64,000 nucleotides of DNA from a virus. Location: the IMG/VR virus record IMGVR_UViG_3300023174_003623, positions 90,778 to 154,777 of that record; one strand, given 5' to 3'. Position 1 is the first letter of the stretch, and the number at the start of each line of letters is the position of its first letter. Made by a program: the position numbers and the translations under genes. Below the pieces are notes generated by a model. The model was not told where the DNA came from, ran no database searches, and was given only the letters and a program-made list of their open reading frames with translations. Positions 19,273-50,669 of this stretch are shown piece by piece.

Positions 19273-21183
19273 ATGCTCAAGTTCAGTAAATTTATAGTTG
19301 AAAGTGTTCAAGAAGAACATAATGAAGTTCCAATAGAGCAAGATAGACAGAATACACTTTTTGGAACAAATGATTATGTGCCATTTCATGAAGGCGATAA
19401 GTTTAATGAATCTTATATTGTAGAATCAGTTGAAGACCACCCTGATAATCCTGCAAGATTAGTTTTTAGAGGTAGCGGCGCTGCAAAGGGTATTGTTGTG
19501 CCTCGACATATGTGGGAAGGCAGTAAACCTACAGACCCAAATGCACCGGTCAAATTGGGTAAAGATGGTAAGCCTAAAAAACAAAACCGAACGATGGGAA
19601 TGCGAGATAGAAATAAACTTAGAGCACAAGTATATGGTGGTGAAAATAGAGATCCATTAACTTTAGGTCAAATAGAAAATGTTCATAAACAAACTTTAGA
19701 TGAGCATTTTGCAAAACCTAAATCTCAACAAATTGAAGCAGAAAAAGCCGCAATATCAAGATTACAAGCTGCTGGTCATTTAGGTAAGAACGGTGATACT
19801 ACGGATGAGGGTGAAAAAACTGATACCGTCCAAAATGAATATGATGAGAAAGGTAGATCTTTTGTTGCTTCTGCTTCCAAAGGTGTTGCTGGTCATGCTC
19901 TTTATACTTCTGGTTATGGTGAAAATGAAAGACATCATATTTTAAACACTTGCCCTGCTCAAACCGTAGGTTGTGGTGGTGGCGTTGATGCACATGGTGT
20001 GGCTGATACGTCTAAAGGTGGGTGTTTTGCACCTAACGCTGAAGCTCAATATGTTGCCGCTTCAGTTAAAAGAGCTTGTCATGAACAAGCTAAACATGAC
20101 CCAGCAATGACCCGTGATTGGATTCTAGCTCATGCTCATTCTTTACGAAATCGAGCAGATGAAGCAGATAAACAAGATAAAAGAACATTATTTAGACCAA
20201 ACGTAGTAGATGAAACTGATAGAACCTCGCGTCATTTAATTAATCATTTGAATGCTCAACGGGCAACAGAAGACAATCCAAGTCGCCCCGGTGAATCAAA
20301 ACCACCAATTATTGCTAATTCTTATGGTAAGACTAATGAATTACATGATCCCGAAAATAATTATCATGTAACTTATTCAAATACTGGGCCTAAAGTAAAA
20401 AATGGTGGTTTTATTCATGAAAATATGCGAAAAGATAAACAGAGAATTAGGAATACAATCAACGCTACACGAAATGCTGTAGGTGAAGACATCGTTAATG
20501 ATCAAGGTAATAAGACACCACCTAAAGGCTCATATTTAGTAACAGACATGAGAAGAGGTAAAAAACTAGATCAAGAATATCAAAAAAACATAACTCATAT
20601 TAAATATTGGTCTGGACCTAGAGAAGAAAATGAATTATCTTCTGCTGAAAAAAAGGAAGGACCAGAAGGTCATTATGATGGTAATGGTAAGGCAACCACT
20701 CCAGATAAAGCTCATTATGGACATAAGACTATCAACGGAAGGCGATATGATTATCAAAAACAACATGTAGTACATCCTCGGTTAGTAAAGGTTGGTGATA
20801 AATTAATTCCAACAGACTCAAGATTTAAAGATGAAGATTTCTTACCAAAAGAAAGATTTAAATCTAAGAATGGTAAAACTCCCGGTGGCATTTTAGTTAC
20901 TACACCAACTACATCTACAAGCAAGATAAAACATGAATCGGAGTTTAATCACCATGTTGGACCTGAGACTATTGAACATGCTAAAATGAATAACGGTGAG
21001 CATGAAATTGATAAGCCAGAAGATCAAGAAGCTGCTCGTGGTAATCCTTTTGTTAACCCATCAATGGAAACGGCTGTAAAATCCGCCAAATCAAAATCCG
21101 ACAAAGTAAGGCAGAAAGTTGGTCGCCCCATGACGGGTGTTGAACGTGCAATTGCAAGAGCAAAGGGTCAGCAAATAGACTAA
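19273..21183 (+). CDS. Large hypothetical protein with capsid-targeting-like N-terminus and GP88/DUF7227-like Cys domain
   Basis: MLKFSKFIVE start; TCPAQTVGC...GCF, RPNVVD, SYGK, NYHVTYS; TATAAATA at 19234. Confidence 0.55.
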   Translation: MLKFSKFIVESVQEEHNEVPIEQDRQNTLFGTNDYVPFHEGDKFNESYIVESVEDHPDNPARLVFRGSGAAKGIVVPRHMWEGSKPTDPNAPVKLGKDGKPKKQNRTMGMRDRNKLRAQVYGGENRDPLTLGQIENVHKQTLDEHFAKPKSQQIEAEKAAISRLQAAGHLGKNGDTTDEGEKTDTVQNEYDEKGRSFVASASKGVAGHALYTSGYGENERHHILNTCPAQTVGCGGGVDAHGVADTSKGGCFAPNAEAQYVAASVKRACHEQAKHDPAMTRDWILAHAHSLRNRADEADKQDKRTLFRPNVVDETDRTSRHLINHLNAQRATEDNPSRPGESKPPIIANSYGKTNELHDPENNYHVTYSNTGPKVKNGGFIHENMRKDKQRIRNTINATRNAVGEDIVNDQGNKTPPKGSYLVTDMRRGKKLDQEYQKNITHIKYWSGPREENELSSAEKKEGPEGHYDGNGKATTPDKAHYGHKTINGRRYDYQKQHVVHPRLVKVGDKLIPTDSRFKDEDFLPKERFKSKNGKTPGGILVTTPTTSTSKIKHESEFNHHVGPETIEHAKMNNGEHEIDKPEDQEAARGNPFVNPSMETAVKSAKSKSDKVRQKVGRPMTGVERAIARAKGQQID

Positions 21184-21199
21184 AGGTAAATACTATATT

Positions 21200-21592
21200 A
21201 TGAATCCATTTGATTATGTGAAATCGATTAATGAATCGAAAGTGAATTTGATGGTTGATACAGAGAATGATGAGTTGGCAGAGAAGGATTATGTTCCCTT
21301 TCTGACCAACAAGTCATTCTCGTATCATATTGACACAATCCTCTATGCAAACGAAATTAATCAGTTTGCACACATGGATAACAAGCTTCAATATGAATAC
21401 TATCTAAACGGTATTCCTAAAAAGAAGCGGTTTAGCCAGTGGACAAAGAAAACCTCCAATGAAGATTTAGATATTGTAGCTGAATATTACAGTTGCAATT
21501 ACATTCGTGCTGCCGAAATCTTGACAATTATAAATAAAAAACAGTTCAGTCTGATTAAAAATAAATTGCAAAAAGGCGGGACAAATGAATAG
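21200..21592 (+). CDS. gp62: Clamp loader small subunit
   Basis: NPFDYVKSIN, YVPFLTNKSFS, KKRFSQW. Confidence 0.92.
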   Translation: MNPFDYVKSINESKVNLMVDTENDELAEKDYVPFLTNKSFSYHIDTILYANEINQFAHMDNKLQYEYYLNGIPKKKRFSQWTKKTSNEDLDIVAEYYSCNYIRAAEILTIINKKQFSLIKNKLQKGGTNE

Positions 21593-21662
21593 ATCTGTGT
21601 AGTTGAAGGTTAGAAACAACTACTCCGATTATAATAAATTAAAAAAAGCGGAGTGAGTAAAC

Positions 21663-22058
21663 ATGAATGTAGTTGATTCCTTAGTAGAAGTGAGTCTCTT
21701 AGAACAAGAAGATTTTTTAAAGATTAAAGAAACTTTGACTCGTATTGGTGTTGCTTCAAAGAAAGATAATACTTTATATCAATCTTGTCATATTCTTCAT
21801 AAACAAGCAAAATATTACATCGTACACTTTAAAGAACTTTTCATGTTAGATGGTAAGCCGTCTAACTTTTCAGATGATGATAAAGCCAGACGAAATACTA
21901 TTGCCACTTTATTAGAACAGTGGGGTCTTCTTAAAGTTGTTCGTCCAGAGTACATTGCAGAAATGATGGCACCAATTAGTCAAATCAAAATTATCTCTCA
22001 TAAAGAAAAAGATGATTGGGAATTGGTAGCGAAATATAATATAGGCAGAAAAAAATGA
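21663..22058 (+). CDS. regA: Translational repressor
   Basis: DFLKIKETLTRIGVAS, LYQSCHILHKQ, YYIVHFKELF. Confidence 0.97.
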   Translation: MNVVDSLVEVSLLEQEDFLKIKETLTRIGVASKKDNTLYQSCHILHKQAKYYIVHFKELFMLDGKPSNFSDDDKARRNTIATLLEQWGLLKVVRPEYIAEMMAPISQIKIISHKEKDDWELVAKYNIGRKK

Positions 22059-22579
22059 TAGCAACTTTTAGGGAATTTGTAGAGACTATACCTGAGCATG
22101 AGCCTAAATTTAATAAACTTAGTGACGATCAAATTTCCAAAAGAGGAAACCTATCACATACTCTTGAGACTGACAGATTCCATGTAAAAGCTATCGATCA
22201 CAATGACGGGTTTAGAACTTATACCGTTCATGATAAAGCTACCGGAGAACATGTCGGTACTGTAGAAGGTCAGATGCTACATAAAGGCAAAACTTTCAGA
22301 GCAGAAGAAGTAACTAAGGATAGAACTTCTCATCCAAAAATGATGCATGAAGTCTATAATGCAATATTGAATAACGGAACTTCGATGATGAGTTCTGGGT
22401 CTATAAGCAAAACGGCACATAAGATCTGGGAACGCTTGCATTCTGAAGATAGACCTGTTAGACTAGTCAAAGATGGAAAGATTGTTCCAAATTCTAGTCC
22501 TGACTGGAAGAAAAATGTCCAAAAGCCTACATTAAAAAATATAGAAAATCCTACAGTTTATTTTGTAAGGGCTAAATAA
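22055..22579 (+). CDS. Hypothetical protein, capsid-targeting-like N-terminus, possible GNAT-like fold
   Basis: MIATFREFVE start; S-x-S-x-TAHKIWERL segment. Confidence 0.5.
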   Translation: MIATFREFVETIPEHEPKFNKLSDDQISKRGNLSHTLETDRFHVKAIDHNDGFRTYTVHDKATGEHVGTVEGQMLHKGKTFRAEEVTKDRTSHPKMMHEVYNAILNNGTSMMSSGSISKTAHKIWERLHSEDRPVRLVKDGKIVPNSSPDWKKNVQKPTLKNIENPTVYFVRAK

Positions 22580-24319
22580 ATGTTAAGATTCAAAGCTTTT
22601 TTATTAATTTCAGAAGAATTAAATGATTCACAACGTGAAGAATTTAATCAAATGCCTAGAGATCCAAAAGCCGTAAAAGCTACTGATCATTATTTTGGTG
22701 TAGGTAATGATGTTGTGTCTAAACCATTAGAAGGCACAATGGATAAATCTGAAATACACAAAGCTATTGAACGACATTTAGGACGATCCATTTCGCATCA
22801 AGATTACAAAAATGGTATAACAAATGATGAATATGGTCGTCAAACTAAACTTGGTAAACTTCTAACTAAAACAAAAGCACCTTCTACATTAGTTAATGGG
22901 TTTGCTAACGATAACACCAGACAAGGTAAAAAATTCACTGGGTTAACTGCAATAACTACTAGATCTCCGGGCGGAGATCCTAGTAAAGGTGATAAATCTG
23001 GTGTTGCAGGTCAAACCTCTTCTAATCAATCTTGGCAACAACAATCTTGCAAAAATGTAGAAACCGGTCTCCATAAAAAGTACCTACCACAAGAAATTAA
23101 ACATGGAACAGTTGTTACTTATTTACAAGATCATGAAGGGCGAGAATTAGCCAGAGCAACATTACAACCGCATATTAATGATCAAGGGCATACAGCATAT
23201 GCCGTAGATTCACATTATGGTATCGATCACGCTGGATTTAAAGCTCATGCAGAGCAATTAGCTAAAGATTTATCAGGACCACATAAAGGTGGTTCAATCG
23301 TTTATAAAAAACATCCTGATGTATATAATGATAATGGTTATACTACAATGATGCATCCTGATGTTGCACCAGAACATATAACTAAAGCATTAGATGATGA
23401 TGATAAATTAGTTCGTCTAGCAGCAATTAGTCACCCTAAAGCAACATCAGAACATATAACTAAAGCATTAGATGATCCAAACGAAGGAATTCGTAAAGCA
23501 GCACTTGAACACCCTAAAGTAACATCAGAACATATAACTAAAGCATTAGATAATACAAATGATTTTGTTCGTTTAGCAGCAATTAGACACCCTAAAGCAA
23601 CATCAGAACATATAACTAAAGCATTAGATGATCCAGCTGAATATATTCGTGACTCAGCACTTGAACACCCTAAAGTAACATCAGAACATATAACTAAAGC
23701 ATTAGATAATACAAATGATTTTGTTCGTCAAATAGCAATTAAACACCCTAAAGCAACACCAGAACATATAACTAAAGCTTTAAATGATCCAAGCATTGAA
23801 GTTCGTAGAGCAGCACTTGAACACCCTAAAGTGACATCAGAACATATAACTAAAGCTTTAAATGATCCAAGCAGTAGTGCAGGAGTTCGTCAAGCAGCAA
23901 TTAGACACCCTAAAGCAACATCAGAACATATAACTAAAGCTTTAAATGATCCAAGCAGTAGTACAGGAGTTCGTCTAGCAGCAATTAGTCACCCTAAAGC
24001 GACACCAGAACATATAACTAAAGCATTAGATGATACAAATGATTTTGTTCGTGAAATAGCAATTAGACGCCCTAATGCAACACCAGAACATATAACTAAA
24101 GCTTTAAATGATCCAAGCATTGAAGTTCGTAGAGAAGCACTTAAACACCCTAAAGTGACATCAGAACATATAACTAAAGCATTAGATGATGATGATGTAT
24201 TTCGTCGTGCAGCAGCACTTGAACACCCTAAAGTAACATCAGAACATATAACTAAAGCATTAAATGATCCAAGCAGAGAAATTCGTCAAATAGCAATGAA
24301 AAAACAAAAAGCTAAATAA
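22580..24319 (+). CDS. HEAT/LRV-like repeat protein
   Basis: 12 C-terminal repeats HPKxTxEHITKALxDxxxxVRxxAxx. Confidence 0.85.
   Translation: MLRFKAFLLISEELNDSQREEFNQMPRDPKAVKATDHYFGVGNDVVSKPLEGTMDKSEIHKAIERHLGRSISHQDYKNGITNDEYGRQTKLGKLLTKTKAPSTLVNGFANDNTRQGKKFTGLTAITTRSPGGDPSKGDKSGVAGQTSSNQSWQQQSCKNVETGLHKKYLPQEIKHGTVVTYLQDHEGRELARATLQPHINDQGHTAYAVDSHYGIDHAGFKAHAEQLAKDLSGPHKGGSIVYKKHPDVYNDNGYTTMMHPDVAPEHITKALDDDDKLVRLAAISHPKATSEHITKALDDPNEGIRKAALEHPKVTSEHITKALDNTNDFVRLAAIRHPKATSEHITKALDDPAEYIRDSALEHPKVTSEHITKALDNTNDFVRQIAIKHPKATPEHITKALNDPSIEVRRAALEHPKVTSEHITKALNDPSSSAGVRQAAIRHPKATSEHITKALNDPSSSTGVRLAAISHPKATPEHITKALDDTNDFVREIAIRRPNATPEHITKALNDPSIEVRREALKHPKVTSEHITKALDDDDVFRRAAALEHPKVTSEHITKALNDPSREIRQIAMKKQKAK
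23354..24301 (+). repeat. 12 tandem 78-bp (two 84-bp) coding repeats
   Basis: CAGAACATATAACTAAAGC is invariant in every unit. Confidence 0.92.
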
Positions 24320-24421
24320 ATTGTATAAATAGAGTTTGATATTGCCATGCCTTCGGGGTGGCGCGTTTGATAGTATCGCATAAACTATCAATTTATTAAT
24401 CTTGCCTAACAGGAGATACTT

Positions 24422-24892
24422 ATGACTAAGACATACTATGTCCCAAAAAATTGGGACGCCTTCAATTCGTTCTTTGTCGGATTTGATCACGTTTTCAACG
24501 AAGCTTCAAAACTTCATGACGACTTCACAAAGAGCATCCCCCACTATCCTCCGTACAACATCAAAAAAATCGATGAGAATAAGTACGCAATCGAGCTTGC
24601 AGTAGCTGGTTTCGGTCGTTCTGATATCGAGATTGAGTTTGTCGAAGATAAGCTAGTCATCACGGGCAATTCCAAAAATGACGATGCCAATCCTTACCTT
24701 TATAAGGGAATCAGTACTCGTGCCTTTACACGAACTTTTTCTCTAAATGACTCTATCGAAATTAAGGGTGCTGAGATTTTAAATGGTATTCTTCAGATTG
24801 TTCTGGAGCGTATTATTCCTGATCATAAGAAGCCCAAAAAGATCGAAATTAAAGAACCAACTACTAAACAGTTTCTTGCGGAGGAAAAATGA
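24422..24892 (+). CDS. hsp20: Small heat shock protein
   Basis: YPPYNI, IELAVAGF, YKGISTRAFTRTF, NGILQI. Confidence 0.96.
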   Translation: MTKTYYVPKNWDAFNSFFVGFDHVFNEASKLHDDFTKSIPHYPPYNIKKIDENKYAIELAVAGFGRSDIEIEFVEDKLVITGNSKNDDANPYLYKGISTRAFTRTFSLNDSIEIKGAEILNGILQIVLERIIPDHKKPKKIEIKEPTTKQFLAEEK

Positions 24893-24992
24893 ATCTTATT
24901 AAAGACAATACAGCTTTGTCACTTTTGATCTTATTTAATGCTTGTTCATTGATAAGTTATTTTATGAGAACTGGCATTTAATCTAAAAAAGG

Positions 24993-25018
24993 AAAGGGGA
25001 GATTTTGCTCCCCTTTTC
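24993..25018. terminator. Bidirectional terminator between convergent hsp20 and lysin
   Basis: AAAGGGGAG/CTCCCCTTT stem flanked by A and T runs. Confidence 0.7.
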
Positions 25019-25019
25019 A

Positions 25020-25637: not shown

Positions 25638-25659
25638 ATGAAAATCCTTTAAATATTAT

Positions 25660-25688
25660 TTGACTTACTGTTAAAATAGTAGTATAAT
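25660..25688 (+). promoter_or_regulatory. Sigma70-like promoter for gp43
   Basis: TTGACT-N17-TATAAT. Confidence 0.7.
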
Positions 25689-25718
25689 ACAATATAAAAT
25701 ATTTATATAGGAACAAAA

Positions 25719-28265: not shown

Positions 28266-28282
28266 ACAATTTGAGGTAAAAT

Positions 28283-29203
28283 ATGTCATTTTTCAAAAAT
28301 CTTGTAGAAAGTATAAAAGATGAAGACACTAATATCGTTGCTGATGGTCAAGGTTCTTCAGAATTTAGTGGATTTATTGATACTGGGTCTTATATTCTCA
28401 ATGCAGTTGTTAGTGGTAGTATTTTTGGTGGTGTCCCAAATAATAAGATTACTGCTTTTGCTGGTGAATCTGCTACCGGAAAAACTTTCTTTGTGCTTGG
28501 GATTGTCAAAGCCTTCTTAGATGCAAATCCTACCGCTGGTGTTATGTATTATGATACTGAGGCTGCTGTTACCAAACAGATGATGGAGTCTCGCGGAATT
28601 GATACTAAGCGAGTAATTGTTGCTGAACCAGATACTATTCAGAAGTTTAGAACTCATGCCCTTAAGACGCTTGACTATTATGAAAAGGGTGGTGCAGACC
28701 GTCCTCCGTTTATGATGGTGCTTGATTCATTGGGTCTTCTATCTACCACAAAAGAAATGGAAGATACTGCTGAAGGTAAAGAGACTCGTGACATGACTAA
28801 ATCCCAAACTATTAAGGCTGCATTTCGAGTGTTGACTTTGAAGTTAGCAAAGGTCAAGGTTCCGCTTATTGTAACCAATCACGTTTATGATATCGTTGGC
28901 GCATATGTTCCCACCAAAGAAATTTCTGGTGGATGTTTGGTTGCAGGCACTAACGTCTTAACGCGCAGAGGGTTTGTTAGCATAGAAAATATTAGTACTA
29001 ACGATTTAGTGATGACTAAAGAAGGTGAATTTAAAAACGTATTAGAATGTCACACTTTTGATGATAAAGAACTATTGCAAATCCATTTAGAAGATGGGTC
29101 AAGTGTAACGTGTACACCAGAGCACAAATTTTTTATTAACAATCAATGGGTTGAAGCAAAAAACATTATTATAGGTGATGATCTGCAAACATTACAAAAA
29201 TAG
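28283..29203 (+). CDS. uvsX: UvsX recombinase N-extein fused to split intein N-half
   Basis: GESATGKT Walker A, LDSLG, VTNH...EISGG then intein block A CLVAGTNV (from 28934) and block B CTPEHKF; stop after 89 intein residues. Confidence 0.93.
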
Positions 29204-29227
29204 GTAGTGGTTTAAAGTATAAATTAA

Positions 29228-29268
29228 TAAATACATGTATGACGTTTAGGAGGTCTTGCATGTATTTA
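29228..29268 (+). promoter_or_regulatory. RBS/start-sequestering hairpin overlapping a late-like promoter of the HNH gene
   Basis: TAAATACATGTATGAC / GTCTTGCATGTATTTA stem with AGGAG in the loop; AATAAATA at 29226. Confidence 0.7.
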
Positions 29269-29934
29269 AATAACAAATATACAAATTGGTATATGAAATT
29301 GATGAATTCTAGAAAACAATTACCTAGAAAAAGAAAAGACGGTAATTGTTATGAATCTCATCATATTTTACCTAAAAGTTTAGGCGGCAGTAATCATAAA
29401 TCTAATTTAGTATTATTAACTCCAAGAGAACATTTTATAGCCCATTGTTTATTAATAAGAATGACCTATGGCGCACAAAAACGAAGTATGACATATGCAT
29501 TGGTGCGGTTTTTAGGTAAAAATATCGATAATCAACGGTATAAAATAACTTCTAGAATATATGAAAATATCATAAAAAATAATCGAATTTTTACTTTAGG
29601 TAAAAATAATCCCATGTATGGCAAACCTTGTTGGCATACAATGACAGAAGAAGAAAAAAGTGAATGGAAAACTAATATTAGTAAAGGGATGATGGGAGAA
29701 AAAAATCCATTTTATGGTAAAACACACAATCAAGAAACTCGAAATATTATATCACAAATCCGTTCTCAACCAATTTTAGTTAAATTCAATAATGGTTCAG
29801 AAATAACATTTACTCAATATAAATTTTTAGGTACTTACATTGGTAAATCTGAAGCATTAGGACAGAAATTATGCAAACCTCAACACAATAATTTATTGGC
29901 AAAATATGGAATAAAGGAAATTATAAAATTATGA
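29260..29934 (+). CDS. HNH homing endonuclease with NUMOD3 motifs
   Basis: [14 protein letters not shown]...[14 protein letters not shown]; NPMYGK and NPFYGKTH; AGGAGG RBS. Confidence 0.92.
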
Positions 29935-30449
29935 AAGTAGTTAATATTAAATCTGTAGGAACAGGAAAAGTATATGACATTACAGTTGATGAGCATGAAA
30001 ATTATATTCTTGAAAATGGATTGATAACTCACAATTCAGGGCTTAAATATGCTGCGTCTACTATCGCCATGCTTTCTAAGAAGAAAGATAAAGATGGTAA
30101 CAACGATGTGGTTGGTAACATCATCAAAGTCAAGATGCACAAATCTAGGTTATCGAAAGAGAATGGTCAGGTTGAAGTTCGCTTATCATATGATAAAGGT
30201 CTTGATAAGTATTATGGTTTGCTTGATTTAGCTGAAAAGTATGGTATAATCAAGAAGGTCACTACTCGATACGAGATGCCTAACGGAACTAGGCTTTTTG
30301 GAAAGGAAATTCTATCCAATCCAGAAAAGTATTTCGATGATGAAATGCTTCTTCGTCTAGAAGAGTGTGCCAAAAAAGAATTTAGTTATGGTGGTCAAGG
30401 AGAAATTGATGACAATCGAGAAGACGATTCTATCGAATCTGGTGTTTAA
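29931..30449 (+). CDS. uvsX: Split intein C-half fused to UvsX C-extein
   Basis: 35-aa IntC MKVV...VYDITVD...NGLITHN followed by SGLKYAAS, continuing UvsX. Confidence 0.93.
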
Positions 30450-36864: not shown

Positions 36865-36938
36865 GATTTAATATATAGAAAATGTATTTCATATAAATAT
36901 CAATATCTTATACTCACTGCTTTTATAGAGGAACTACC

Positions 36939-37589
36939 ATGGCAAAGAAGTTTACGCAATTTGTTCAAGAAGCCCATATCAAGACAATCAATGAAGACGA
37001 ACTTACTCATTTTATAAATGAATTGGTTGAAGAACATGATTTGACTGAAGAAGAAACTCAAGAAGTGCTTGACGAACTTTTTGGAATTGGTAGCACATTG
37101 AAACGAGTTGGTAGTGTTGTAGCTTCCCCATTCAAACATGTTGGTGCATGGGTTAAAGGGAAAGTAGATAAAGCAAAATCTGGTATTCATGCTTTAAAAG
37201 TTAAATCTCGTGCAGCAGATATAAAAAGTGCTGGTAAATTGTCTGCCGCTAGACAAGCTAGTGCAACAAGTGTATCAGATACTTATAAAAAATCTGCTGG
37301 TGCAGATTCTGAACGTACTAAAGCAAGACAAGTTCGTCAAGCAACTATTCGCACACGAAAAGCTGGTGGTGGTGTAACTTCAACAGGCAGTGCATATATC
37401 ACTCATCCAGAAACGGGTCGGCATGTTGCTATTTCTCATGATGATGCTGGTGCAATTGGTAGAGGTGAAAAGAAAGCCTCTGATGTAATTAAAGCTAAAG
37501 CACCTAAACCAAAGGCAGTTGCTCCAGCACCTAAACCAAAAGCTAAGGCTCCTTCATCAGTTGTTAGATCACCAAGACGTAGCAGATAA
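36939..37589 (+). CDS. Basic K/A/P-rich protein with capsid-targeting-like N-terminus
   Basis: MAKKFTQFVQE; acidic N-terminus, histone-H1-like C-terminus; TATAAATA at 36892. Confidence 0.65.
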   Translation: MAKKFTQFVQEAHIKTINEDELTHFINELVEEHDLTEEETQEVLDELFGIGSTLKRVGSVVASPFKHVGAWVKGKVDKAKSGIHALKVKSRAADIKSAGKLSAARQASATSVSDTYKKSAGADSERTKARQVRQATIRTRKAGGGVTSTGSAYITHPETGRHVAISHDDAGAIGRGEKKASDVIKAKAPKPKAVAPAPKPKAKAPSSVVRSPRRSR

Positions 37590-37600: not shown

Positions 37601-37873
37601 ATGGATTATTTAACCATTAAAGAACTTGTGCTAGAAATTGTTGAAGAGATTTTGTCTTCTGACGAGGATTTGCAAGAACTTTTTGTCAGAAGACGAAAAT
37701 CTGCTGTACCAAAGAAAAGAGGTCAATACCCTCAAAAAGTTGATCGTCACAAATATGTGAAACAATTCAGACCTTTTGCTACTCGTGGTGGATTTCAGAT
37801 TGATGCTCGATATGTGCGTAGAGGTGGGCCAACATCAAATCCTTTGAATCCTGTCAGACCACCTCGTCCTTAA
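37601..37873 (+). CDS. Hypothetical protein, acidic N-terminus and Arg-rich C-terminus
   Basis: AAGGA RBS, same late operon. Confidence 0.6.
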   Translation: MDYLTIKELVLEIVEEILSSDEDLQELFVRRRKSAVPKKRGQYPQKVDRHKYVKQFRPFATRGGFQIDARYVRRGGPTSNPLNPVRPPRP

Positions 37874-37878: not shown

Positions 37879-38781
37879 ATGAAATCTTTGCATCAGTTTA
37901 TAAAAGAAAAAGTTGCATCAGGTAAAGTTATCAATGCAGAAGAAAGCCCTTTATATAAAAAAAGAGATAAACCAGAAGAAAAACTATCTTCAGAAGAAGA
38001 AGTTCAAAAAGCTCTTAATACTGATGCCACATCCAGAAGAATAATTGCAAAAAATATTCAACATCCTGTAGGTACTCGGATTGGTGCGCGACTTAATCTT
38101 AACGTATTAAAAAATAATGGTATTCCTGTTTTAACAATTCATAAAGGTTCTAAAAGAGGAGGATCTTATGGTGGTGAGGCTCAAGCTTACCATCATGTTG
38201 TAACCCTTCATAATGTAGAATTTAACGTCAATCAATCAGCAAGAGATGCTATTGCAACGGGTAGAGAAAATAAAAGTGCAATGGCTTCAGTTGATGGCGA
38301 AATACAAGATCCTAGCAAGCATAGTTTTAATGGTGTAGTTGCTAAATTCAATCCAAAACGTCAACATGTATTTGTAGATGAAAATGGACGGGCAATTAAG
38401 TCTGCTGAAGATGTAACTCTACATGGAAATCGTGCATACTTGCGTGGAAAAATTGAATATCATAACGCAGAAACAATACCGCATCCTATAGGGGATTCGC
38501 CTTCAGATGCAAAATTACATGAAAAAAGGAATTTAGGAGAAACTAATATGTCAAAACTAAAAGAAATCATTCACCAGTATGTTGTAGAAGCACTTGAAGA
38601 GATTCTTGACGAAGGTGTTGAGCGTGAAGCCAGACTTCAAAATAGCGTCTTGAATGATCCTACAAATCAAGATAAAAGAGATGCATTAGAACGTGCAGTA
38701 ACAAAAAACGTTAGAAGAAAAGTTAGAGCTATGAGAAAGCGTCTTTTTGTGCCAAAACCCGATGATAAGTATGATGACTAA
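37879..38781 (+). CDS. Hypothetical protein with capsid-targeting-like N-terminus; internal in-frame start at 38548
   Basis: MKSLHQFIKE; AGGAG-N8-ATG at 38548. Confidence 0.6.
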   Translation: MKSLHQFIKEKVASGKVINAEESPLYKKRDKPEEKLSSEEEVQKALNTDATSRRIIAKNIQHPVGTRIGARLNLNVLKNNGIPVLTIHKGSKRGGSYGGEAQAYHHVVTLHNVEFNVNQSARDAIATGRENKSAMASVDGEIQDPSKHSFNGVVAKFNPKRQHVFVDENGRAIKSAEDVTLHGNRAYLRGKIEYHNAETIPHPIGDSPSDAKLHEKRNLGETNMSKLKEIIHQYVVEALEEILDEGVEREARLQNSVLNDPTNQDKRDALERAVTKNVRRKVRAMRKRLFVPKPDDKYDD

Positions 38782-38787
38782 ATTTAA

Positions 38788-39108
38788 GTGATATCTTTTA
38801 TTGATTACATTCTCGAAGTAAAGCATACAAAGCGAACCAAGAGAATAAAAAGGGGAAAAGCAAAGGAGCCAACACAGCCAAGACAAAGTGATTGGCCTCC
38901 TTTCACCCCTGAGCCTCCATCATATACAAACAGCACTGGTATAGCGGAACAGGAAGGCGAACCCACAAAGCCTAACAACCCTACACCTTTGCCACCTTCT
39001 AATCCCCCCCAAAAGAAGAAGAAGCCATCTAAAAGCACTTCTCTTTTTGGGTCTGGGTTTACAGGTCTTTCAAGCGGTCTTCCTCCGACTTCTGCACAGG
39101 GCAATTAA
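38788..39108 (+). CDS. Pro-rich protein with capsid-targeting-like N-terminus
   Basis: GTG start, MISFIDYILE. Confidence 0.55.
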   Translation: MISFIDYILEVKHTKRTKRIKRGKAKEPTQPRQSDWPPFTPEPPSYTNSTGIAEQEGEPTKPNNPTPLPPSNPPQKKKKPSKSTSLFGSGFTGLSSGLPPTSAQGN

Positions 39109-40594: not shown

Positions 40595-40987
40595 CTATAT
40601 CTTTCTAGAAACTATACCTCGACCTTTTGGCGCATATGGTTTTACTCTTTCTACATTCAAAAGAGGATATCCCCATTTACCATTTGGGCCTATATCAAAT
40701 TTAGATTGTGGTGCGACTTGATGTTTGTCGTAATCTCTTCTAAACTCTTCTTCGTTTTTATAAAAGATAGGCTCTCCAACAGTAGCATGACCAACAACCT
40801 GTGCTGGGCCTTTACCTGTTCTTACAATACCTATTTTCTTTCCGATATATGGATGAAGAGTGGGTGTATTTCTGGTTTCAATAGTTTTCTGACCGTGTAG
40901 AATTTGGTCAGTAAAAGGTTGAGTTTTATCGTTTATATTGATACCGATTGACACTTCTTCAGTTATAAAATTAATAAATGAAAGCAT
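40595..40987 (-). CDS. ASCH domain protein with capsid-targeting-like N-terminus
   Basis: QPFTDQILHGQKTIETR (GxKxxExR); MLSFINFITE. Confidence 0.85.
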   Translation of the reverse strand: MLSFINFITEEVSIGININDKTQPFTDQILHGQKTIETRNTPTLHPYIGKKIGIVRTGKGPAQVVGHATVGEPIFYKNEEEFRRDYDKHQVAPQSKFDIGPNGKWGYPLLNVERVKPYAPKGRGIVSRKI

Positions 40988-41003: not shown

Positions 41004-41015
41004 TATTTATAAATA
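41004..41015. promoter_or_regulatory. Palindromic bidirectional late promoter TATTTATAAATA
   Basis: TATAAATA on both strands between two divergent genes. Confidence 0.75.
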
Positions 41016-41043: not shown

Positions 41044-41595
41044 ATGTTATCATTCTTCGAGTTTATTACAGAAAAAGTTTTATCGATTGGACTAAACCCA
41101 GAACACGAAAAATATCGAACACAACATATGCAAGATATGCACGATATGCTTGTAAAATCATATCATTATGTTGGTGGCTATGCTGGGTTGGGTTCTGGTT
41201 CTGAGGAAGAATCAAAAGCAATTCACTCTGATTTATCCAATCCAGATCATATTATTAAAGTCATTAAAAGAGGCAGTGCAATCACCGCTCTTGCTATGTA
41301 CAAACCACAATTCGGACGTAAAGGTATAGCATCTGCTACTGATGGCACTGCTCAAGGGGTTAAAGATTGGAAAAAAATGAGGGACGAAGATAGTCGTCGG
41401 CATGGTTGGGCGGAAACTTCACATAAAGCTACCGCAGCATTAAAAAAACTAGGCTACCCTGAAATTCCAATTCAAGATATGCAGCGAATCTTATCAAATA
41501 AGAAACTGACACCAACCTCTGGTAACAAATATACTAGAGAGATTGGTGGACACGAACACGAAAAAGTTGGAATGGGCTATCCAAAGCTAGACTAA
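41044..41595 (+). CDS. Hypothetical protein with capsid-targeting-like N-terminus
   Basis: MLSFFEFITE start. Confidence 0.65.
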   Translation: MLSFFEFITEKVLSIGLNPEHEKYRTQHMQDMHDMLVKSYHYVGGYAGLGSGSEEESKAIHSDLSNPDHIIKVIKRGSAITALAMYKPQFGRKGIASATDGTAQGVKDWKKMRDEDSRRHGWAETSHKATAALKKLGYPEIPIQDMQRILSNKKLTPTSGNKYTREIGGHEHEKVGMGYPKLD

Positions 41596-43451: not shown

Positions 43452-46400
43452 TTTTGTTTTTTTGTACTCTAAAAGGAGATTAAAATGGAAGTAATGATTA
43501 AACTAGATGGTGATCAAGTTGACCGAATCGTGGTTGATCAACTTAAGAACAGTATCGCGTTGTTGGAAATGGAACTAGACAATCGTAATCGTAATCTTAA
43601 TTCCTTTGGTGTCTTTACCAGCGACCGCGAGAAGGATATTGTAGAAATTGAAAACCATCTTCTTGCTATGAAGACGACTCTCGATTGGTTTGAACCTTCT
43701 TGGATGCGAAATGAAAACCAAAAGTAAAACCTTGGCTAAGGCTCTTAGACATATGAATGAAAAAATTGAGTCTTCTATTATTGCAGAAGCCGCTAACAAG
43801 ATTGAAGAACTGGAAGCCAAGGTATCTGAGTTGAACCAAAAACTATGTAAAGAAATCTTTAGATTAAGAGGTTCATAATGAGTCGGGCTGAAAAGGTTCT
43901 TAGGATGAGTGACGAAACAATTAACTTTTTGTCATCTACACTCGTATTGGGTGTTGTTTTTGGATTGATGTTTTTTACCGATATCATACAACCAACTTAC
44001 ATCACATCCTTACTGTATAAGTGTCAAGAGACTTTGCCAAGAAATCAGCACTGTAAAATCATTGCTGTTCCGGATGAAATCAAATGAAAAGACAAAAAAT
44101 TGAAGACCTCGCAATTCAAGCCGGAATCAAATCCTATGTATTAGGAATGGCTACCGAAGAAGCGTGGCAACAAACTGAACGATTTGTTGAGTTGATCATT
44201 CAAGCGTGTATTGACAATCTTTTTTTCCACGGACACGATGAAGCTGCTAATCAGTTAGAATGGTTGCGTGTGAATCGATTTGGAGTGAAGAATAAATGAA
44301 AGAACTATCCAAAGAAGAAATCCTAGAAGCATTTAAGCGTCTTGCTAGCTCTCCTCGGTATCGTCTAAGCGAATTCGAAATCTTTACGATGGCTGTTCGC
44401 TGGATGGAAAAACAGAATAAAGGCGAAGAATCTATGAAAGAAATTACAGAAATTACTGATTATTCTATGAATATCAAGGATTTAGATATCAAGGATTTAG
44501 TAGCAGAAACTAATGCTAAATCCTTGTCTCTTTTTGATTTCAAACCAAATTATAATGTTGTGTTTCACAATGGAGATCGCCAGATTGGGAGACTTGACTT
44601 TAATGGTGGTGTGATGGTGTTTGAAGGAGATGCTGAAGAGAGTGCTAAAATATTCTTTGATGCTCTTGCAGAAAAGTTTGCGGATCGTTTGAAAGAAGAA
44701 CGAGAGAAGGAGCGCGAGGCAATTTGCCGTCTGGTACAGAGCATGTGGCGTGGCATCGACGCTGACAGGATGGTCGAAGCAATCCGCGCAAGGGGGAAGA
44801 ATGAACGAACTAATTAAAGAACTCGCCGACCAATCTTGGAACACATTTGATCTCCGAGGCGTTGAAGTCGGACCTCCTTATGTCTTTGCTGAACGATTCG
44901 CCGAGTTGATTGTGCGGGAATGTAGCATAGTCATTCAAGATTTTGTAGATCATAGAATTCCTGCCAGCGAATATCCTAAGCAGTTAAAAGAACATTTTGG
45001 AGTTGAATAATGGGTTGGACTTATGAAGTTAATGTTTGGGATGGTCCAACTGATGGTCAATTTAAATGGTTGCAGATTTACGCCGGAGAGAGTATAATCA
45101 AAGCAGTCTACAATATGTGGTGGGCTAAACGCAACGGATGGCAATGTATCAAGCTGGAATATAGACCGTGATAGATAAAACAACAAAGACGGTGATGGTG
45201 CTAGCCATAGTTGTATTCTTGGTCTTGAGTTATTTCGCAGTCACTCGCTCAAATGAACGAGAAGAAAAGTGTAGCAAAGTAAACGGGATTGTGATACAAT
45301 CCAATCAAGGTTGGATTTGTGTAGACTCTAACATTATGAAAGGATAAACAAATGATTGAAGGCAAGGTTGAAGGCATTCGCCGTGAGAAGTATTGGAACG
45401 AGCGTGATATTGATGAGAAGCTAGAGGGTCTCCGTCAGGCTCTGTTTCAGCAACATCATCTGATTAGTATGATTCATGATATGGTGTTAAAGTTGAACGT
45501 GCATCAGCATGTAAACGATAAAATGATTCTTCCGTTTAATTTTCCGGATAATCACATTAGAAGCCCGTATGTTCCTAATTGCATTCAGATTCAGAATGAA
45601 CAGAAGGAATAATTGCAATGTCTAAGTTAGCACATTTGATTACTGCGACTGCAACAGGAGATGTTGCTGCATCAAGGAAACTAAAACCAAATTATATTAA
45701 TGTTGACGTTGAGCATTCATACGATCCACACTCTTATGATGTGCTTTATGACATTGGAATGAGGTTACATAAAAAAACTCGTATTGCAAGGTCCTTATCT
45801 GAACAAATCAATGCTGAAGCTGAACAAGATATGTTAACTAATGTTAGGCGCGCAATGATAGAAGAGGTGTTTGGAGAATTCCGTCACTATCTTGTTGAAA
45901 TGCGTGCTGCATTATACGATAATGATGATTATCGCATTAAAACTCTTTTGGCGGAGATGGAACATCAAATGTTTCATGAAGGAATTTAATATGATCATTG
46001 ACCGTTATGTAAAGTTTGAATGGAAGGGTTCTCAGGAAGTAGAGAACGGTGTCGCTGTATTCACTGTTCTTGAATCTGAAAGACTTGAAGTGGAGCTGAC
46101 CCATTTTGGTGCGGCTCATGCTATTTTCAAGCGAATGGAAAAGATTGCGGGCATGGCGTTTCGCGATGGTGAATCTAGCTTGCTGGCAAGAGTCAATAAT
46201 TTGGTGCAGTCGCTATGAAGTCCCATAAAGAACAGGTAATAGAATCCGCTATTCAAGGATTGATTGAGGGAGGATTCACCAAAGACTATGCTTATTTGTT
46301 TGAGAAGTTGCTTGACAGGGTATATACCGCAGCATACAATGAGGGTAAGTGGTCAGGTCAACAGGAAAGTTATATCAACAGCCTTCATTGGAGCAATAGT

Positions 46401-49204
46401 AGATAACATGAAATACTACACCTACTGTGAGCCAACCAGTACCGAGGACATGACACCGCTGTATATCACTCTAAGTGAAGAAGAGATTCTAAAAGAATAT
46501 TGGGACTATTGGTATGGTCGGATGTGCGCCAAGTTTGGTCAAAAGCATGTTGATGCGAACTATAGCACTAAAGAATGTATAGAAGACTGGTGCGTGGTGC
46601 ATTGGGCAGAGGAGAGTGAGTGATGAGTGAGATAATCGACCTTAATAAAGCATTCTTGAAATACTTTAACGAATCAGAAGGATTTTCATTAAGATCTGAA
46701 AGATTCTATGATGATGTTAGGTCGATTCTAACAAATCCAGCGTTATCCTCGGCAAGTAGAAATAAACTGATGCGTGGTTGGCTTGAGGCTGCATTCATTC
46801 AAGGTGCAAGGACTATGGCACAGGATACTCTAGACACGCTTGGTGATTATGCCACAGCTGTTGCTGGAATTGATGAAAAAGTATATAATAGATCTGAAGC
46901 ATTTGATGCTGCTAGAGATAATCTTATGACATACTTCACACAGGTACTAAACGGAGAAACAGAATGAATGCAGAAGAAGACCTTAAAAAACTAAGGCGAT
47001 TATTAAAAGAGTTCTTTCAGATGCTGGATAGTACAGAAGAGAGCGACAGCGGAAGAATCTTTAAACCAATCCAAATATCTAGTTGTCGCGCTTTGATGAT
47101 CAAACCTTTAAATAAATTGTTGAACGATCTTAGAAAAGAAGCAATGAGGGAGATTGAAGAATGAGCCCTGAACTAGATAAACGACTATGCGAAGACTTTC
47201 CTAAAATCTTTGCACAAAGAAACGGATCGCCTAAAGAAACTGCATTTGCATTTGGTTTCGAATGCGGTGATGGGTGGTACGATATTATATCCACACTATG
47301 TGCTGTGATTCAGAATCAAATTAAGTATACTCCTGATATTCCTGAAGTCGTTGCTCTTCAGGTCAAAGAAAAATATGGAACACTTAGATTTTATATCTAT
47401 GGTGGTAATGACTATACTGATGGAATGATTGCAATGGCTGAATCTATGAGCGCAAAGATCTGTGAACTCTGCGGTAACAAAGGCAAGGTCATTGAAGATA
47501 ATGGTTGGTTGAAGACTCGGTGTAACACTTGCCATCGTGTTGAAGAGGTTGGACAAGAATAAAGTTGTTTACTTATTTTAATTTATAGATTATAATTGAC
47601 TTATAAATTGAAACGAGGATCTTACGATGTACACTACAAAAGTTACTTGGCTCGGCACCGAATATGGTTGCCGAGTGTTCAAGGACGGTGAACTGATCCT
47701 TGAAGGATGGGCTTCTTCTCGGGAGCTTATTGGTGCAACTTTCCGCGATTTGCTCCGCACCATTGACAAGTGCGGTGAGGGCGACAGCTTTACTTCTGCT
47801 GCTCGTCATCGTAATAGCAAAGAAGGAAATCTTTGCATCGGTGTGAAACACATTTGGCATTAAGGAGGAAGAAATGAATGACCGAATTCTAGAATTGGCT
47901 GTACGGGCTGAGTTATATGTTGATTGGAATGGAAGACCGTATCCTCGGGCAATGAGTGCTGAGGAATGCAGGGCAGCCTATGCAAAGTTTGCTGAACTCA
48001 TTATCGCTGATACACGCGAGGCTTGTGCTAAGATTTGCGATTCTTATGCTGAAAACCAGAAATCTTGGTCTACCGGAGAAGATAGTGCTGAAGAATATCG
48101 AGAGCAAGCGGCAAATGAACTCGCCGATACAATCCGTGAAAGTTGGAATATATGAGACCACAAGAAATCAATCGTAACATTGATTTAGCTTTCAAACGGT
48201 TTGCTCGTGATGGCAATCTAATTCATTTTCAGAAGTGTAAGAATCATCTGGAAAAACGATTAGAATGGTTTCGTAAGACTGAACCAGAATTAGATTTTGG
48301 TTTTACAAATTATATGTATTGTTTTAAAGATGAGTATAACGAAGAAGACATAAAGCATCATTTAAGTTATATCTCTGACCGATGGAATTGCCCCGGTCGC
48401 ATTAACTTTATGCTTGAAGTGATTAACCGAGGAATTTGATATGAAAGATGATATTGTAAGTCTTATAGGTTTTCTAGGTGGCATAGTAGTTACTGTTTGT
48501 TTGCTTATTGCACTTTGCCCGGATTCATTCACGCAAGCAGAAGATGCCCTAAAACAATGTGAAAAATCTTTACCTAGAGATCAAAAATGTATGATAATTG
48601 CAATTCCAGAGGATAAAAAGTGAAAAAGATTAAATCAGAATTGACGCTCGAAGAAGCATGGGGCATGAACGGGCTGATGGCAACTTCCGCTTTTCGTTAC
48701 TGCCTCGGGCGAATGACTTACATCGTTGGCGAATGTGCTGATTGGCTTATCGCTAACTGGGATAAGTTTCCGCCTAGTGTCAGGTCTCTTATTGAACGAG
48801 AACTTGAAGAAGAATTTGGAAATGATGACAGGGAACGGATGCACAATCCACAAGGCATGTGGAAGCCTCTCGGGCACGATTGCGACCGCAAAGAATGGGA
48901 ACGAGTAAGAAAGCTTTGGAATAAAAAAGAAGACTATGATGATGAAACCACAGGATGTTGATGAGCTTATGTCTGCTTTCATTCGATATGAGAAAGCACT
49001 GACTCATCTTCCTTTTGAATCTCTTTTAACAAGAGAAGAGATGGAAGAAGCTGAACTAATAATGCAACAACAGTTTGCATACGAAGAATAGACCACTACC
49101 ACACTTCCCCCCAGATGTCAATAGAAAAGAATTTCTTTTTACCTGTTGACATCTTTTTTTGATTCTGTATAATGCCTCTCATCGAAACGAAACAGGAGAT
49201 GGAA

Positions 49205-50053
49205 ATGCCTAAAGGTGTATACGAACGTAAGCCGCGCATTAAGAAAGACGACTTTGCGACTCCCCGTATGTCAATGGTTGTCACTGAGACTGATGACCAG
49301 ATTGACACTCGCCTTCGTAGCCGGTTTCGCACTGTTGGTATCATGGCGAAGTCTGCATGTGATGGTATTACTCGCTCTTTGATTGTCTCTGGGCCTCCGG
49401 GTCTTGGCAAGTCTTTCACGGTCGAGAAGATTGTGTCAGACTACGATAAGAGTGGTAAGAAGGCTGTCATCTGCAAGGGTTATGTGCGTCCTACTGGCTT
49501 GTATAAGACTCTGTACGAATATCGTCATGCTGGCAATGTGATTGTGTTTGACGACTGCGACTCTGCCTTTCAGGATATGGATGCTCTCAATCTTCTGAAG
49601 GCTGCGTGCGATACTACTGAGAAGCGACGCCTGATGTGGGGTGCTGAGACTCGCATGACTGACGCTAACGGTAAACCCATGCCTTGGTCGTTTGATTTTG
49701 AAGGTTCTATCATCTTCATCACCAATTACGACTTCGATGCTGCGATTGCCGCTAACAACAAGTTCAGCGAACACTTCAATGCGCTTATCAGTCGGTCGCA
49801 CTACATTGATACCGGCATGAAGTCGATTCGTGACTATCTGGTGCGAATTCAGCAAGTGGTCGATGAAGGCATGTTGGACGATATGGGGTTGACGGCATAC
49901 CAGCAGCGTGATATCATTGACTTCGTGTTCGACAACGCACCTAAGTTTCGAGAGCTTACGTTGCGTATGGTAATCAAGCTCGCAGGGTTGTACAATATCA
50001 GCCGTACCGAGTGGAAGACGATGGCTTCTGTTACTCTGTTCAAGAAAATCTAA
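49205..50053 (+). CDS. AAA-type P-loop ATPase
   Basis: SGPPGLGKS, VIVFDDCD, IIFITN; promoter TTGACA-N16-TATAAT at 49146. Confidence 0.85.
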   Translation: MPKGVYERKPRIKKDDFATPRMSMVVTETDDQIDTRLRSRFRTVGIMAKSACDGITRSLIVSGPPGLGKSFTVEKIVSDYDKSGKKAVICKGYVRPTGLYKTLYEYRHAGNVIVFDDCDSAFQDMDALNLLKAACDTTEKRRLMWGAETRMTDANGKPMPWSFDFEGSIIFITNYDFDAAIAANNKFSEHFNALISRSHYIDTGMKSIRDYLVRIQQVVDEGMLDDMGLTAYQQRDIIDFVFDNAPKFRELTLRMVIKLAGLYNISRTEWKTMASVTLFKKI

Positions 50054-50067
50054 ACTGGAGACTTATA

Positions 50068-50427
50068 ATGATTGACTACATTGTGACTTTTACCGACAAC
50101 CACCTTAAGAACATTGCCAAGGGTCTGTTGAGTTATAACGGTATTGAGGCGTCTGATTTGCGAAAGCTTAAGACGACCAAAACGAAAGTCGTCGAGGCTA
50201 TTGTCGCTGACCCTGAGTTCAAACAGTCTTTACTTAAGACTCTTAATGATCATCTGGCTTTTAGCAATCTTTATGATTGTTTTCCGTTTGAAGATGATAT
50301 GTACGATATTGCTATCATCAAAGATATTTGTGACGCACTTCAAGTTAAGAACCAAGAAGCTAACAGGAAGCGTATGATTGAAGACGCCCGTGAGTTGTTG
50401 ATTGAGAACGGGTATACGGTTTCTTAA
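50068..50427 (+). CDS. Hypothetical protein
   Basis: GGAG RBS. Confidence 0.6.
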   Translation: MIDYIVTFTDNHLKNIAKGLLSYNGIEASDLRKLKTTKTKVVEAIVADPEFKQSLLKTLNDHLAFSNLYDCFPFEDDMYDIAIIKDICDALQVKNQEANRKRMIEDARELLIENGYTVS

Positions 50428-50669
50428 CTGTTACCAAGAGCTGCCACACGACTTGTCTTTTTAAGAATGTCTCTCACTACACCGGGAGACACTTTATTGT
50501 GGTGTGGCAGTTCTACTCTTTCTTCTGGTGCGTCTGGGTGTTTATAGATAGCATGGTCGCCTGTGTCTCTATGCTTCACCCAGCCATTCTGTCGTAAGTG
50601 TGACTCAACATCACGACGTTTGTCCATCGTGATTTTAATTTCTTGAATGTATTGAAGAAAAGTTATCAT
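50424..50669 (-). CDS. hicA: HicA-family mRNA interferase with capsid-targeting-like N-terminus
   Basis: LRQNGW...TGDHAIYKHP...LPHH...SPGVVRDILK; MITFLQYIQE; CATAAATA upstream on minus strand (50691-50698). Confidence 0.82.
   Translation of the reverse strand: MITFLQYIQEIKITMDKRRDVESHLRQNGWVKHRDTGDHAIYKHPDAPEERVELPHHNKVSPGVVRDILKKTSRVAALGNS

Follow-up and report, generated by a model that had tools for sequence, protein, structure and literature searches.

Phage T4 carries inside its head a set of internal proteins (IPs) which are described as basic and DNA-binding (PMC9026906), all three of which are inhibitors of GmrSD restriction enzymes (PMC12373910). They are addressed to the head by a short N-terminal leader of about 10 residues (19 in IPI), the capsid targeting sequence (CTS): in the T4 record, IPII and IPIII start with MKTYQEFIAE and IPI starts with MKTFKEF...ITE. 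Amber-suppression mutagenesis of the IPIII leader assigned targeting mainly to residues 4 and 7 and processing to residues 8 and 10 (PMC9026906, section 2.6). Reviews have already proposed that T4-like phages can use the CTS to load a variety of proteins (including PMC9026906). Here we describe a putative system of this kind in a stretch of 64,000 nucleotides (the window) from the IMG/VR virus record IMGVR_UViG_3300023174_003623, where a sequence-only reading had noticed nine open reading frames (ORFs) with a shared N-terminal motif and had proposed that they encode injected cargo. The shared N-terminus is probably a T4-type CTS placed on unrelated cargo which is packaged late and delivered with the DNA. 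As nine to thirteen unrelated basic proteins carry the T4 head-loading label, they are probably packed in the virion and injected together with the DNA. The proposal of injected cargo is thus supported by the match to the functional positions of the T4 leader, by the presence of gp21, gp22 and gp23, by the unrelated basic bodies, by the modularity of the tag and by tagged proteins in cyanophage virions.

The likeness to the T4 internal proteins extends to a 10-residue leader with aromatics at positions 4 and 7, I/L/V at position 8 and Glu at position 10, to a longer IPI-like variant, to a gp21/gp22 type of head and to unrelated, basic, non-essential bodies encoded in plastic loci. By contrast, T4 has three IPs (plus gp61.1 by pattern) and this single genome has 9-13 tagged genes; the T4 proteins are small inhibitors (8-20 kDa), whereas the cargo here reaches 626 residues and includes enzyme, toxin and repeat domains. 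The present system is also known from sequence only, in a phage whose gp23 is 43% identical to that of T4. Large cargo has a precedent in the T4 ADP-ribosyltransferase (ART) Alt (682 aa), a head-carried enzyme with a gp21-cut propeptide ending in Glu, which is injected; since Alt travels in the head, cargo of the size of the 636- and 579-aa proteins described below can go the same way. Unlike the leaders here, however, the Alt leader (MELITE...) does not have the F-x-x-F-I-x-E form, and the tagged proteins of the present phage showed no ART domain.

Two further systems are related in principle. The jumbo phages phiKZ and SPN3US (PMC5694885, PMC7411985) also have many head-internal proteins which are cut after Glu by a gp21-related protease and ejected, but their propeptides are longer, have another cleavage motif and lack an F-x-x-F-I-x-E leader. 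For the polyvalent proteins of phages and conjugative elements, injection together with the DNA at the very start of infection has been predicted (Iyer et al. 2017, PMC5512222). Such proteins contain, alongside ART-PolyVal and PcfJ domains, the module that makes up the body of the 636-aa protein, and the PF25735 domain of another tagged protein is likewise found fused to ART-PolyVal. Unlike in polyvalent proteins, each module here stands alone behind a CTS, while the giant forms have another conserved N-terminus.

The window comprises the last 64 kb of a 154,777-bp record with an estimated completeness of 81%, in which gene calling gave 204 genes covering 92% of the sequence. The phage is an uncultivated lake member of the T4 superfamily, from a clade distant from the T-evens; a megablast search with 5.4 kb against cultured phages found none that was close at the DNA level, while IMG/VR contains relatives at 52-78% identity. 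The genome is AT-rich (35% G+C). Coordinates below refer to the window unless preceded by "genome", in which case they are counted along the whole record. Both a gp21-type protease and a gp22 scaffolding core are encoded in the tag-bearing genome, next to the major capsid protein:

5555 to 6214, plus strand: gp21 prohead protease (Peptidase_S77; Pfam PF03420 E 3e-39, above cut-off; phrog_207 E 2e-79)
6260 to 7255, plus strand: gp22 scaffolding core protein (tblastn, 35% identity over 97% of its length to annotated gp22 of cyanophages)
7318 to 8667, plus strand: gp23 major capsid protein precursor (43% identical to T4 gp23)

The protease is 37% identical to T4 gp21 and retains the GELxHP and GVSxRGxGS blocks; by analogy with T4, it is the enzyme expected to cut the leaders after Glu, and gp22 is their expected docking partner. 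The gp23 protein is nearest to those of Methylophilales phage Melnitz, Stenotrophomonas phage DLP6 and Sinorhizobium phage phiM12 (65-68% identical). Its L-G-E site aligns beside the T4 L-T-E cleavage site (...RLLGE/DAP versus ...FLTE/AEIGGD in T4).

All nine N-termini of the sequence-only reading were recovered as they had been written. The genes are:

19273 to 21183, plus strand: 636 aa, leader MLKFSKFIVE, between gp44 and gp62
22055 to 22579, plus strand: 174 aa, IPI-type leader MIATFREFVETIPE, overlapping the regA stop codon (ATGA)
22580 to 24319, plus strand: HEAT-repeat protein of 579 aa, IPI-type leader MLRFKAFLLISE (Pfam HEAT E 7e-25)
36939 to 37589, plus strand: 216 aa, leader MAKKFTQFVQE, with an acidic helix and then a basic body of low complexity
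37879 to 38781, plus strand: 300 aa, leader MKSLHQFIKE, PF25735 (L5 gp82-like) domain (Pfam E 7e-10)
38788 to 39108, plus strand: 106 aa with a GTG start, leader MISFIDYILE, basic, proline-rich and of low complexity (mature pI 10.3)
40595 to 40987, minus strand: 130 aa, leader MLSFINFITE, ASCH-like fold by structure matches
41044 to 41595, plus strand: 183 aa, leader MLSFFEFITE, weak lead to a GNAT-like fold (TM about 0.5)
50424 to 50669, minus strand: HicA toxin of 81 aa, leader MITFLQYIQE, antisense to an early small-gene region

Together with four genes upstream of the window, they form a set of 13 tagged genes in the 154.8-kb record. A strict pattern (^M.{1,3}[FYLIM]..[FY][ILV].E), tested on the N-termini of the 204 genes, heads nine of them, namely seven of the nine listed above as well as genome 15751 and genome 38640. 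The rate of the same core within proteins predicts 0.27 such N-termini (Poisson p 2e-11), and shuffling of residues 2-13 gave a mean of 0.33 strict matches with a maximum of 4. The remaining four genes (22055, 22580, genome 333 and genome 17998) have the IPI-like variant, in which F-x-x-F is followed by [IL]-x-E two to five residues later. A generalised pattern that covers both leader forms gave 14 matches against 1.2 expected.

All 13 leaders begin at Met1, have F/Y/L/I at the first targeting position and F/Y at the second, and carry a gp21-type site with I/L/V at P3 and Glu at P1; this Glu lies at position 10-11 in nine leaders and at 11-15 in four. The conserved positions 4, 7, 8 and 10 are the functional positions of the T4 CTS, and the four longer leaders follow the layout of IPI. 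When T4 was used as a control, the strict pattern found IPII, IPIII and gp61.1, and a loose pattern added gp24 and Alt, which are known gp21 substrates. The T4 gp61.1 protein is a hypothetical protein of 54 aa (T4 18966-19130) in the early primase region, and with MKTFKEFIKE it has a full CTS-like leader. In the present phage, the codons of the leaders vary (TTT/TTC/TAC, ATA/ATT/GTT/TTA, GAA/GAG) and the 13 bodies behind them are mutually unrelated by blastp, with weak repeat matches between 22055 and the HEAT protein 22580 as the sole exception. The differing synonymous codons and the unrelated bodies point to selection on the peptide rather than on the DNA.

Several other leader-like N-termini were considered. 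The ORF at 28283 (MSFFKNLVE) is a loose match which was rejected as it encodes the N-terminal half of UvsX with an intein piece behind it; 37601 (MDYLTIKELVLE), 45991, genome 86709 and the 1209-aa tail protein at genome 56657 were rejected because they are off the 4/7/8/10 register. Directly after the tagged gene 333, four tandem paralogues (genome 1226-3897), one of them with a weak ChaB match, all start with MNK[VI][ED]LYASFISD, i.e. with Y-x-x-F-I-x-D. In T4, Asp at position 10 permits targeting and blocks cleavage (PMC9026906); by analogy, these paralogues may be packaged uncleaved. Five proteins from elsewhere, which otherwise differ, begin with a second leader-like helix, MSKLKEIIHQYVVEALEEILxE, over which they are 85-96% identical (about 24 residues); the helix also recurs inside the tagged 300-aa protein (37879-38781), at residues 224-247. 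The untagged 90-aa gene at 37601-37873 in the same operon opens with a similar MDYLTIKELVLEIVEEILSS.

The mature tagged proteins are all basic, with pI values of 8.1-10.3 and a median of 9.5 versus 5.9 in the other 191 proteins (Mann-Whitney p 1.5e-6). Sequence matches make the HicA and HEAT-repeat assignments solid, and both labels had already been proposed in the sequence-only reading; the matches lie above the Pfam cut-offs. The HicA gene matches HicA_toxin (PF07927) over residues 19-71 (E 1e-12, 48.2 bits versus a cut-off of 27) and phrog_353 'toxin' (E 1e-14). A HicB antitoxin was sought beside it and none was found, the neighbours at 50068-50427 (plus strand) and 50666-50863 (minus strand) having no Pfam match; the gene is therefore best described as having a HicA fold and not as part of a classical hicAB module. 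The ASCH label holds at the level of the fold, where structural matches make it a good lead: the Atlas feature score is 0.95, with TM values of 0.86 (viral clusters with ASCH) and 0.70-0.75 (bacterial ASCH proteins). Less remains of the other labels. The GP88-like match of the 636-aa protein stays below the cut-off (Pfam 21 versus 24.4 bits) and its body is really a polyvalent-protein module, the GNAT-like label for 41044 is weak at the TM given above, and the histone-like label was abandoned as 38788 has neither domain nor fold support and is instead the basic, proline-rich, low-complexity protein listed; owing to its low coding score it is also the least certain of the tagged genes. Pfam, PHROGs and NCBIfam gave nothing useful for 22055, 36939, 38788, 41044, genome 333, genome 15751 and genome 17998, and a PDB sequence search was empty for the five proteins queried (19273, 22055, 36939, genome 333 and genome 15751).

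The tagged genes are mostly accessory: 10 of the 13 have no homologue in the complete relative G001, Melnitz, DLP6, phiM12 or T4. The 174-aa and 579-aa genes lie between regA and an hsp20 gene. In G001 both this junction and the gp44/gp62 junction are empty, and the homologue of the 636-aa protein is found elsewhere in the genome, where it is tagged too. The leader of 36939 is kept in 10 homologues, together with the acidic helix and a C-terminal block, while the basic low-complexity middle part varies.

Comparison of homologues indicates that the tag is a movable address which is modular on three cargo families. Outside the T4-like phages, homologues are without the tag. In the case of the 636-aa protein, residues ~55-600 form a module that 81 cluster representatives from a library of 1.84 billion proteins share at 57-67% identity, mostly within proteins of 700-2163 aa and across very different phages. 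Some examples of these large proteins, encoded on viral contigs of high G+C, have ART-PolyVal or PcfJ domains and can thereby be recognised as polyvalent proteins. Stand-alone homologues of the module (620-695 aa) are tagged (MLKFRQFIAE, MLKFRQFLIE, MGKFLDFINE etc.) whereas the large forms are untagged. The 636-aa protein itself consists of one module and a leader; as it does not combine several effector domains, it is not itself polyvalent. Many of the large polyvalent proteins with the module share another N-terminus, roughly P-[ST]-x-x-Q-M-R-x-x-L, which may be the address of their own phage lineages. The second family is that of the PF25735 protein (37879), whose near homologues are tagged (MKTFKAFVQE, MLSFKSFITE, MKSYTQFIAE etc.) while the N-termini of the 17 remotest homologues are unrelated; a fusion to ART-PolyVal was seen in one homologue. 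In HicA, the leader is a 14-residue extension, with Met15 corresponding to the start of plain HicA; five homologues (81-98% identity) are all tagged, and the linker behind the leader carries an indel. The structural matches of the ASCH-like protein also begin past the leader, at residue 9-13.

The AlphaFold model of the 636-aa protein is confident (pLDDT 85, pTM 0.81) with residues 1-48 disordered, and Foldseek found no match for it in the PDB. Against structure representatives (VIA), the top matches of the module are mostly radical-SAM enzymes at a Z of only 5.0-5.8, with no Pfam match. Across 42 sequences the module has three invariant Cys in a C-x6-C-x16-C spacing (the radical-SAM triad is CxxxCxxC or a variant). 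The model thus gives a faint hint that the 540-residue module is radical-SAM-like, which should be taken as a lead and not as an assignment.

Late expression is suggested by the following boxes, which correspond to the late-promoter type NATAAATA:

19234 to 19241, plus strand: TATAAATA late-promoter box, 39 nt before the 636-aa gene
21529 to 21536, plus strand: TATAAATA inside the gp62 gene, upstream of regA
36892 to 36899, plus strand: TATAAATA late-promoter box, heading a four-gene operon in which three genes are tagged
41004 to 41015, both strands: 12-nt palindrome TATTTATAAATA, i.e. two overlapping TATAAATA boxes facing the divergent tagged genes 40987 (minus) and 41044 (plus)
50691 to 50698, minus strand: CATAAATA (NATAAATA-type) box, 29 nt before the HicA gene

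The exact TATAAATA is found 24-47 nt upstream of 19273, 36939, 40987 (minus) and 41044, and CATAAATA upstream of 50669 (minus). In contrast to the claim that most of the nine genes lie behind late promoters, only four to five have one of their own: 22055, 22580, 37879 and 38788 have none and abut or overlap the upstream gene (spacing -4 to +6 nt). For the first two, the box at 21529..21536 could possibly serve as a late start, together with regA which precedes them. The proposed co-occurrence of tag and late promoter stands in part: NATAAATA at -16 to -65 precedes 7 of the 13 tagged genes versus 15 of the 191 others (Fisher p 7e-5), and the tagged genes without it directly adjoin the gene in front of them. 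The same box also precedes gp23, a gp67-like gene and an endolysin-like gene. The motif was, moreover, not equally frequent among early ORFs: by pattern, the 53 small plus-strand genes at 41.6-60.2 kb, which make up the early-type region, are all untagged, and HicA, as the one tagged gene there, lies on the opposite strand behind CATAAATA.

The number of strict tags in the genomes compared is as follows:

This phage: 9
G001: 5
Melnitz: 3
T4: 3
DLP6: 1
phiM12: 1 (a 48-aa ORF, doubtful)

A scan of IMG/VR for TATAAATA followed after a gap of 12-42 nt by codons of M-x-x-F-x-x-F-I-x-E matched at least 119 stretches, with ORF length, T4-like flanks and pI serving as internal controls. Of the matches listed, 80 were analysed, and 78 of these start an ORF of 50 aa or more (median 272 aa). 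T4-superfamily genes flank 71 of the 79 loci, which often lie just after the gp41 helicase gene, and 92% of 76 tagged proteins have a pI above 8. Clustering of the 103 tagged proteins from these listed matches and the six genomes gave 55 unrelated clusters. Tagged genes are found just downstream of the gp41 helicase gene and uvsX in many T4-like contigs of marine and lake origin, and Melnitz has two in this place (12203, 13281); this recurrence suggests a conserved hot spot for internal-protein genes.

Published virion proteomes of cyanophages allow a comparison with purified particles. In S-SM1, the only credible tagged ORF is SSM1_190 (MKKFSAFLNE, T4-GC190, annotated as a cytidyltransferase), and T4-GC190 was detected in purified S-SM1 virions with 25 peptide counts (Sullivan et al. 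2010, PMC3037559, Table S8). In S-CREM2, five annotated ORFs have a strict tag; four are present in the published virion proteome and the fifth is only 55 aa long. The four are:

ORF6: SAM hydrolase, MKDFDSFLEE
ORF13: tagged virion protein, MKDLHSFLTE
ORF14: APH/ChoK-like kinase, KRFDAFLTE
ORF154: cytidylyltransferase, MKNFSSFLTE

Against the background of 52 detected proteins among 221 ORFs, this gives a Fisher p of 0.012, and of 0.002 when pooled with S-SM1; in the two phages combined, five of six tagged proteins were detected in virions. Near-variant leaders occur on three further S-CREM2 virion proteins. The cyanophage virion enzymes (the T4-GC190 cytidylyltransferase/NMNAT-like protein, the SAM hydrolase and the APH/ChoK kinase) thus share their leader type with the present phage, although none of these enzyme families is among its cargo. 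The passages on these enzymes in the respective papers (PMC3037559, PMC10665884, PMC9602691) mention no CTS. The leader of T4-GC190 is kept in homologues from 37 to 100% identity (Syn9, S-SSM6a, B3), while distant homologues match the catalytic part only. For the homologue in S-SSM6a (HQ317391), the true start probably lies upstream of the annotated one (49089): a GTG 72 nt before it (position 49017) gives the leader KSFGQFLTE behind a GATAAATA box.

Two other features of the window were noted. At 28283-30449 uvsX is split: the first ORF combines the N-terminal half of UvsX with a Hint/intein N-piece (Pfam RecA, PT-HINT, Intein_splicing), the gap holds a 224-aa gene related to a T4 homing-endonuclease-like ORF, and the next ORF matches the C-terminal half of UvsX of relatives. 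At 42000-64000 the G+C content climbs steadily from ~0.35 to 0.59 toward the end of the record, across the small-gene region.

The mechanism as such is already known from T4, whereas its reach and the cargo set are new. The present analysis adds the connection to the virion proteomes published for cyanophages, the rule that the cargo is basic, and the re-addressing of modules from polyvalent proteins. For this phage, we infer docking, cleavage, packaging and injection, as well as the action of each cargo, from the sequence. The tagged proteins would be made late, either from their own NATAAATA late promoters or by read-through of an operon, and the aromatics at positions 4 and 7 would dock the leader on the gp22 scaffolding core of the assembling prohead. 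Cleavage by gp21 would then occur behind the Glu of [ILV]-x-E, at position 10 or, in the four IPI-type leaders, a few residues later, and the freed basic mature protein would remain among the packaged DNA. In the next infection it would exit by way of the tail along with the DNA, and its action would precede all phage gene expression. The set delivered in this way would comprise a HicA RNase without antitoxin, a HEAT-repeat, an ASCH-like and a PF25735 protein, the 540-residue enzyme-like module and several basic proteins of unknown fold.

A number of observations weigh against this model. Only for T4 IPs, Alt and CTS fusions has ejection with the DNA been demonstrated (PMC9026906). The 10-residue form is not kept in four of the 13 leaders, and the DUF6433 protein (genome 38640) is kept in relatives with other N-termini and has a Pfam match that starts at residue 9, so that its 'tag' may belong to the family instead of being an added address. 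As to timing, 8 of the 13 tagged genes lack the exact TATAAATA, and this word is not over-represented in the AT-rich genome (27 found versus ~36 expected), which means that only its placement before genes is informative. The region upstream of gene 333 (genome 130-332) contains a strong, near-consensus TTGACA-17-TATAAT promoter of the sigma-70 type as well as a AATAAATA box, and the former implies that gene 333 may be made early as well as late. The proteome cross-check comprises six proteins from two other phages, and the authors of the proteome study warn that abundant enzymes might co-purify with virions and leave it open if these are truly packaged (PMC10665884).

These points have to be considered together with three other explanations of the leaders. 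It is conceivable, though unlikely, that the leaders do target the prohead and are cut by gp21 but that the proteins are assembly parts, such as core or scaffold proteins or DNA-condensing fillers, which are degraded, expelled or inert and not injected as effectors. This is in line with T4 gp67, gp68 and gp22, core proteins processed by gp21 (PMC9026906), with the basic, low-complexity cargo of 36939 and 38788, which is without an enzyme fold, and with the conservation of DUF6433 across the clade as is seen for structural genes. However, the lack of homologues of 10 of the 13 genes in the five related genomes is unlike core genes, and among the bodies are a toxin, an ASCH fold and HEAT repeats as well as a module of the polyvalent proteins, for which injection is itself predicted (PMC5512222); in S-CREM2, the tagged virion proteins reported include a SAM hydrolase and a kinase. 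Even less probable is a role of the leader within the producing cell, as a gp21-dependent switch or degradation signal by which, for example, HicA would be unleashed at lysis time. Such a switch would suit the [ILV]-x-E site, which varies least within the motif, and an antitoxin-less HicA, which must somehow be kept harmless, but in T4 the activity of gp21 is confined to the prohead, positions 4 and 7 (which in T4 serve targeting and not cleavage) are as conserved as positions 8 and 10, and tagged proteins of relatives occur in purified virions.

The explanation that the motif stems from the nucleic acid or the translation start of late genes (AT-rich early codons or the border of a recombination cassette), with the peptide similarity as a by-product, or that it results from chance or paralogy, is largely refuted and very improbable. 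A genome of 35% G+C in which the codons of F, I, K and Y are AT-rich, and the location of many tagged genes in plastic regions, would be in line with it. Yet the shuffled N-termini yielded far fewer matches (0.33 versus 9), synonymous codons vary freely while conservative replacements (F/Y, I/L/V) are retained, the bodies lack mutual similarity, and structural late genes with the same promoters are without the motif. All in all, a capsid targeting sequence on injected cargo accounts best for the shared N-termini.

Proteins that enter the cell with the DNA act before the phage genes are read, which makes them prime candidates for anti-defence and host takeover. If the leader serves as an address throughout the T4 superfamily, the set of proteins injected by a phage could be readable from the genome alone. 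This hidden set would be large, with 55 unrelated families in a small sample, nearly all of them basic and nearly all without known function, and in the present phage it would include an antitoxin-less HicA RNase and a possibly radical-SAM-like enzyme module which elsewhere is delivered inside polyvalent proteins behind another address. A packaged HicA without antitoxin would, if true, be a new use of the toxin of a toxin-antitoxin system. As to this wider role, and with the balance slightly against it, the F-x-x-F-[ILV]-x-E leader may be a sequence-readable address of a large hidden injected set across the whole T4 superfamily, in lake and marine phages and those of cyanobacteria, methylotrophs and other hosts. 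If the T4 label works unchanged in such distant relatives, it would provide a cheap sequence filter for first-strike proteins in metagenomes, explain the recurring cytidylyltransferases, kinases and SAM hydrolase in cyanophage virion proteomes, and be evidence that effector modules are re-addressed between phage lineages, by a CTS here and by polyvalent fusion elsewhere.

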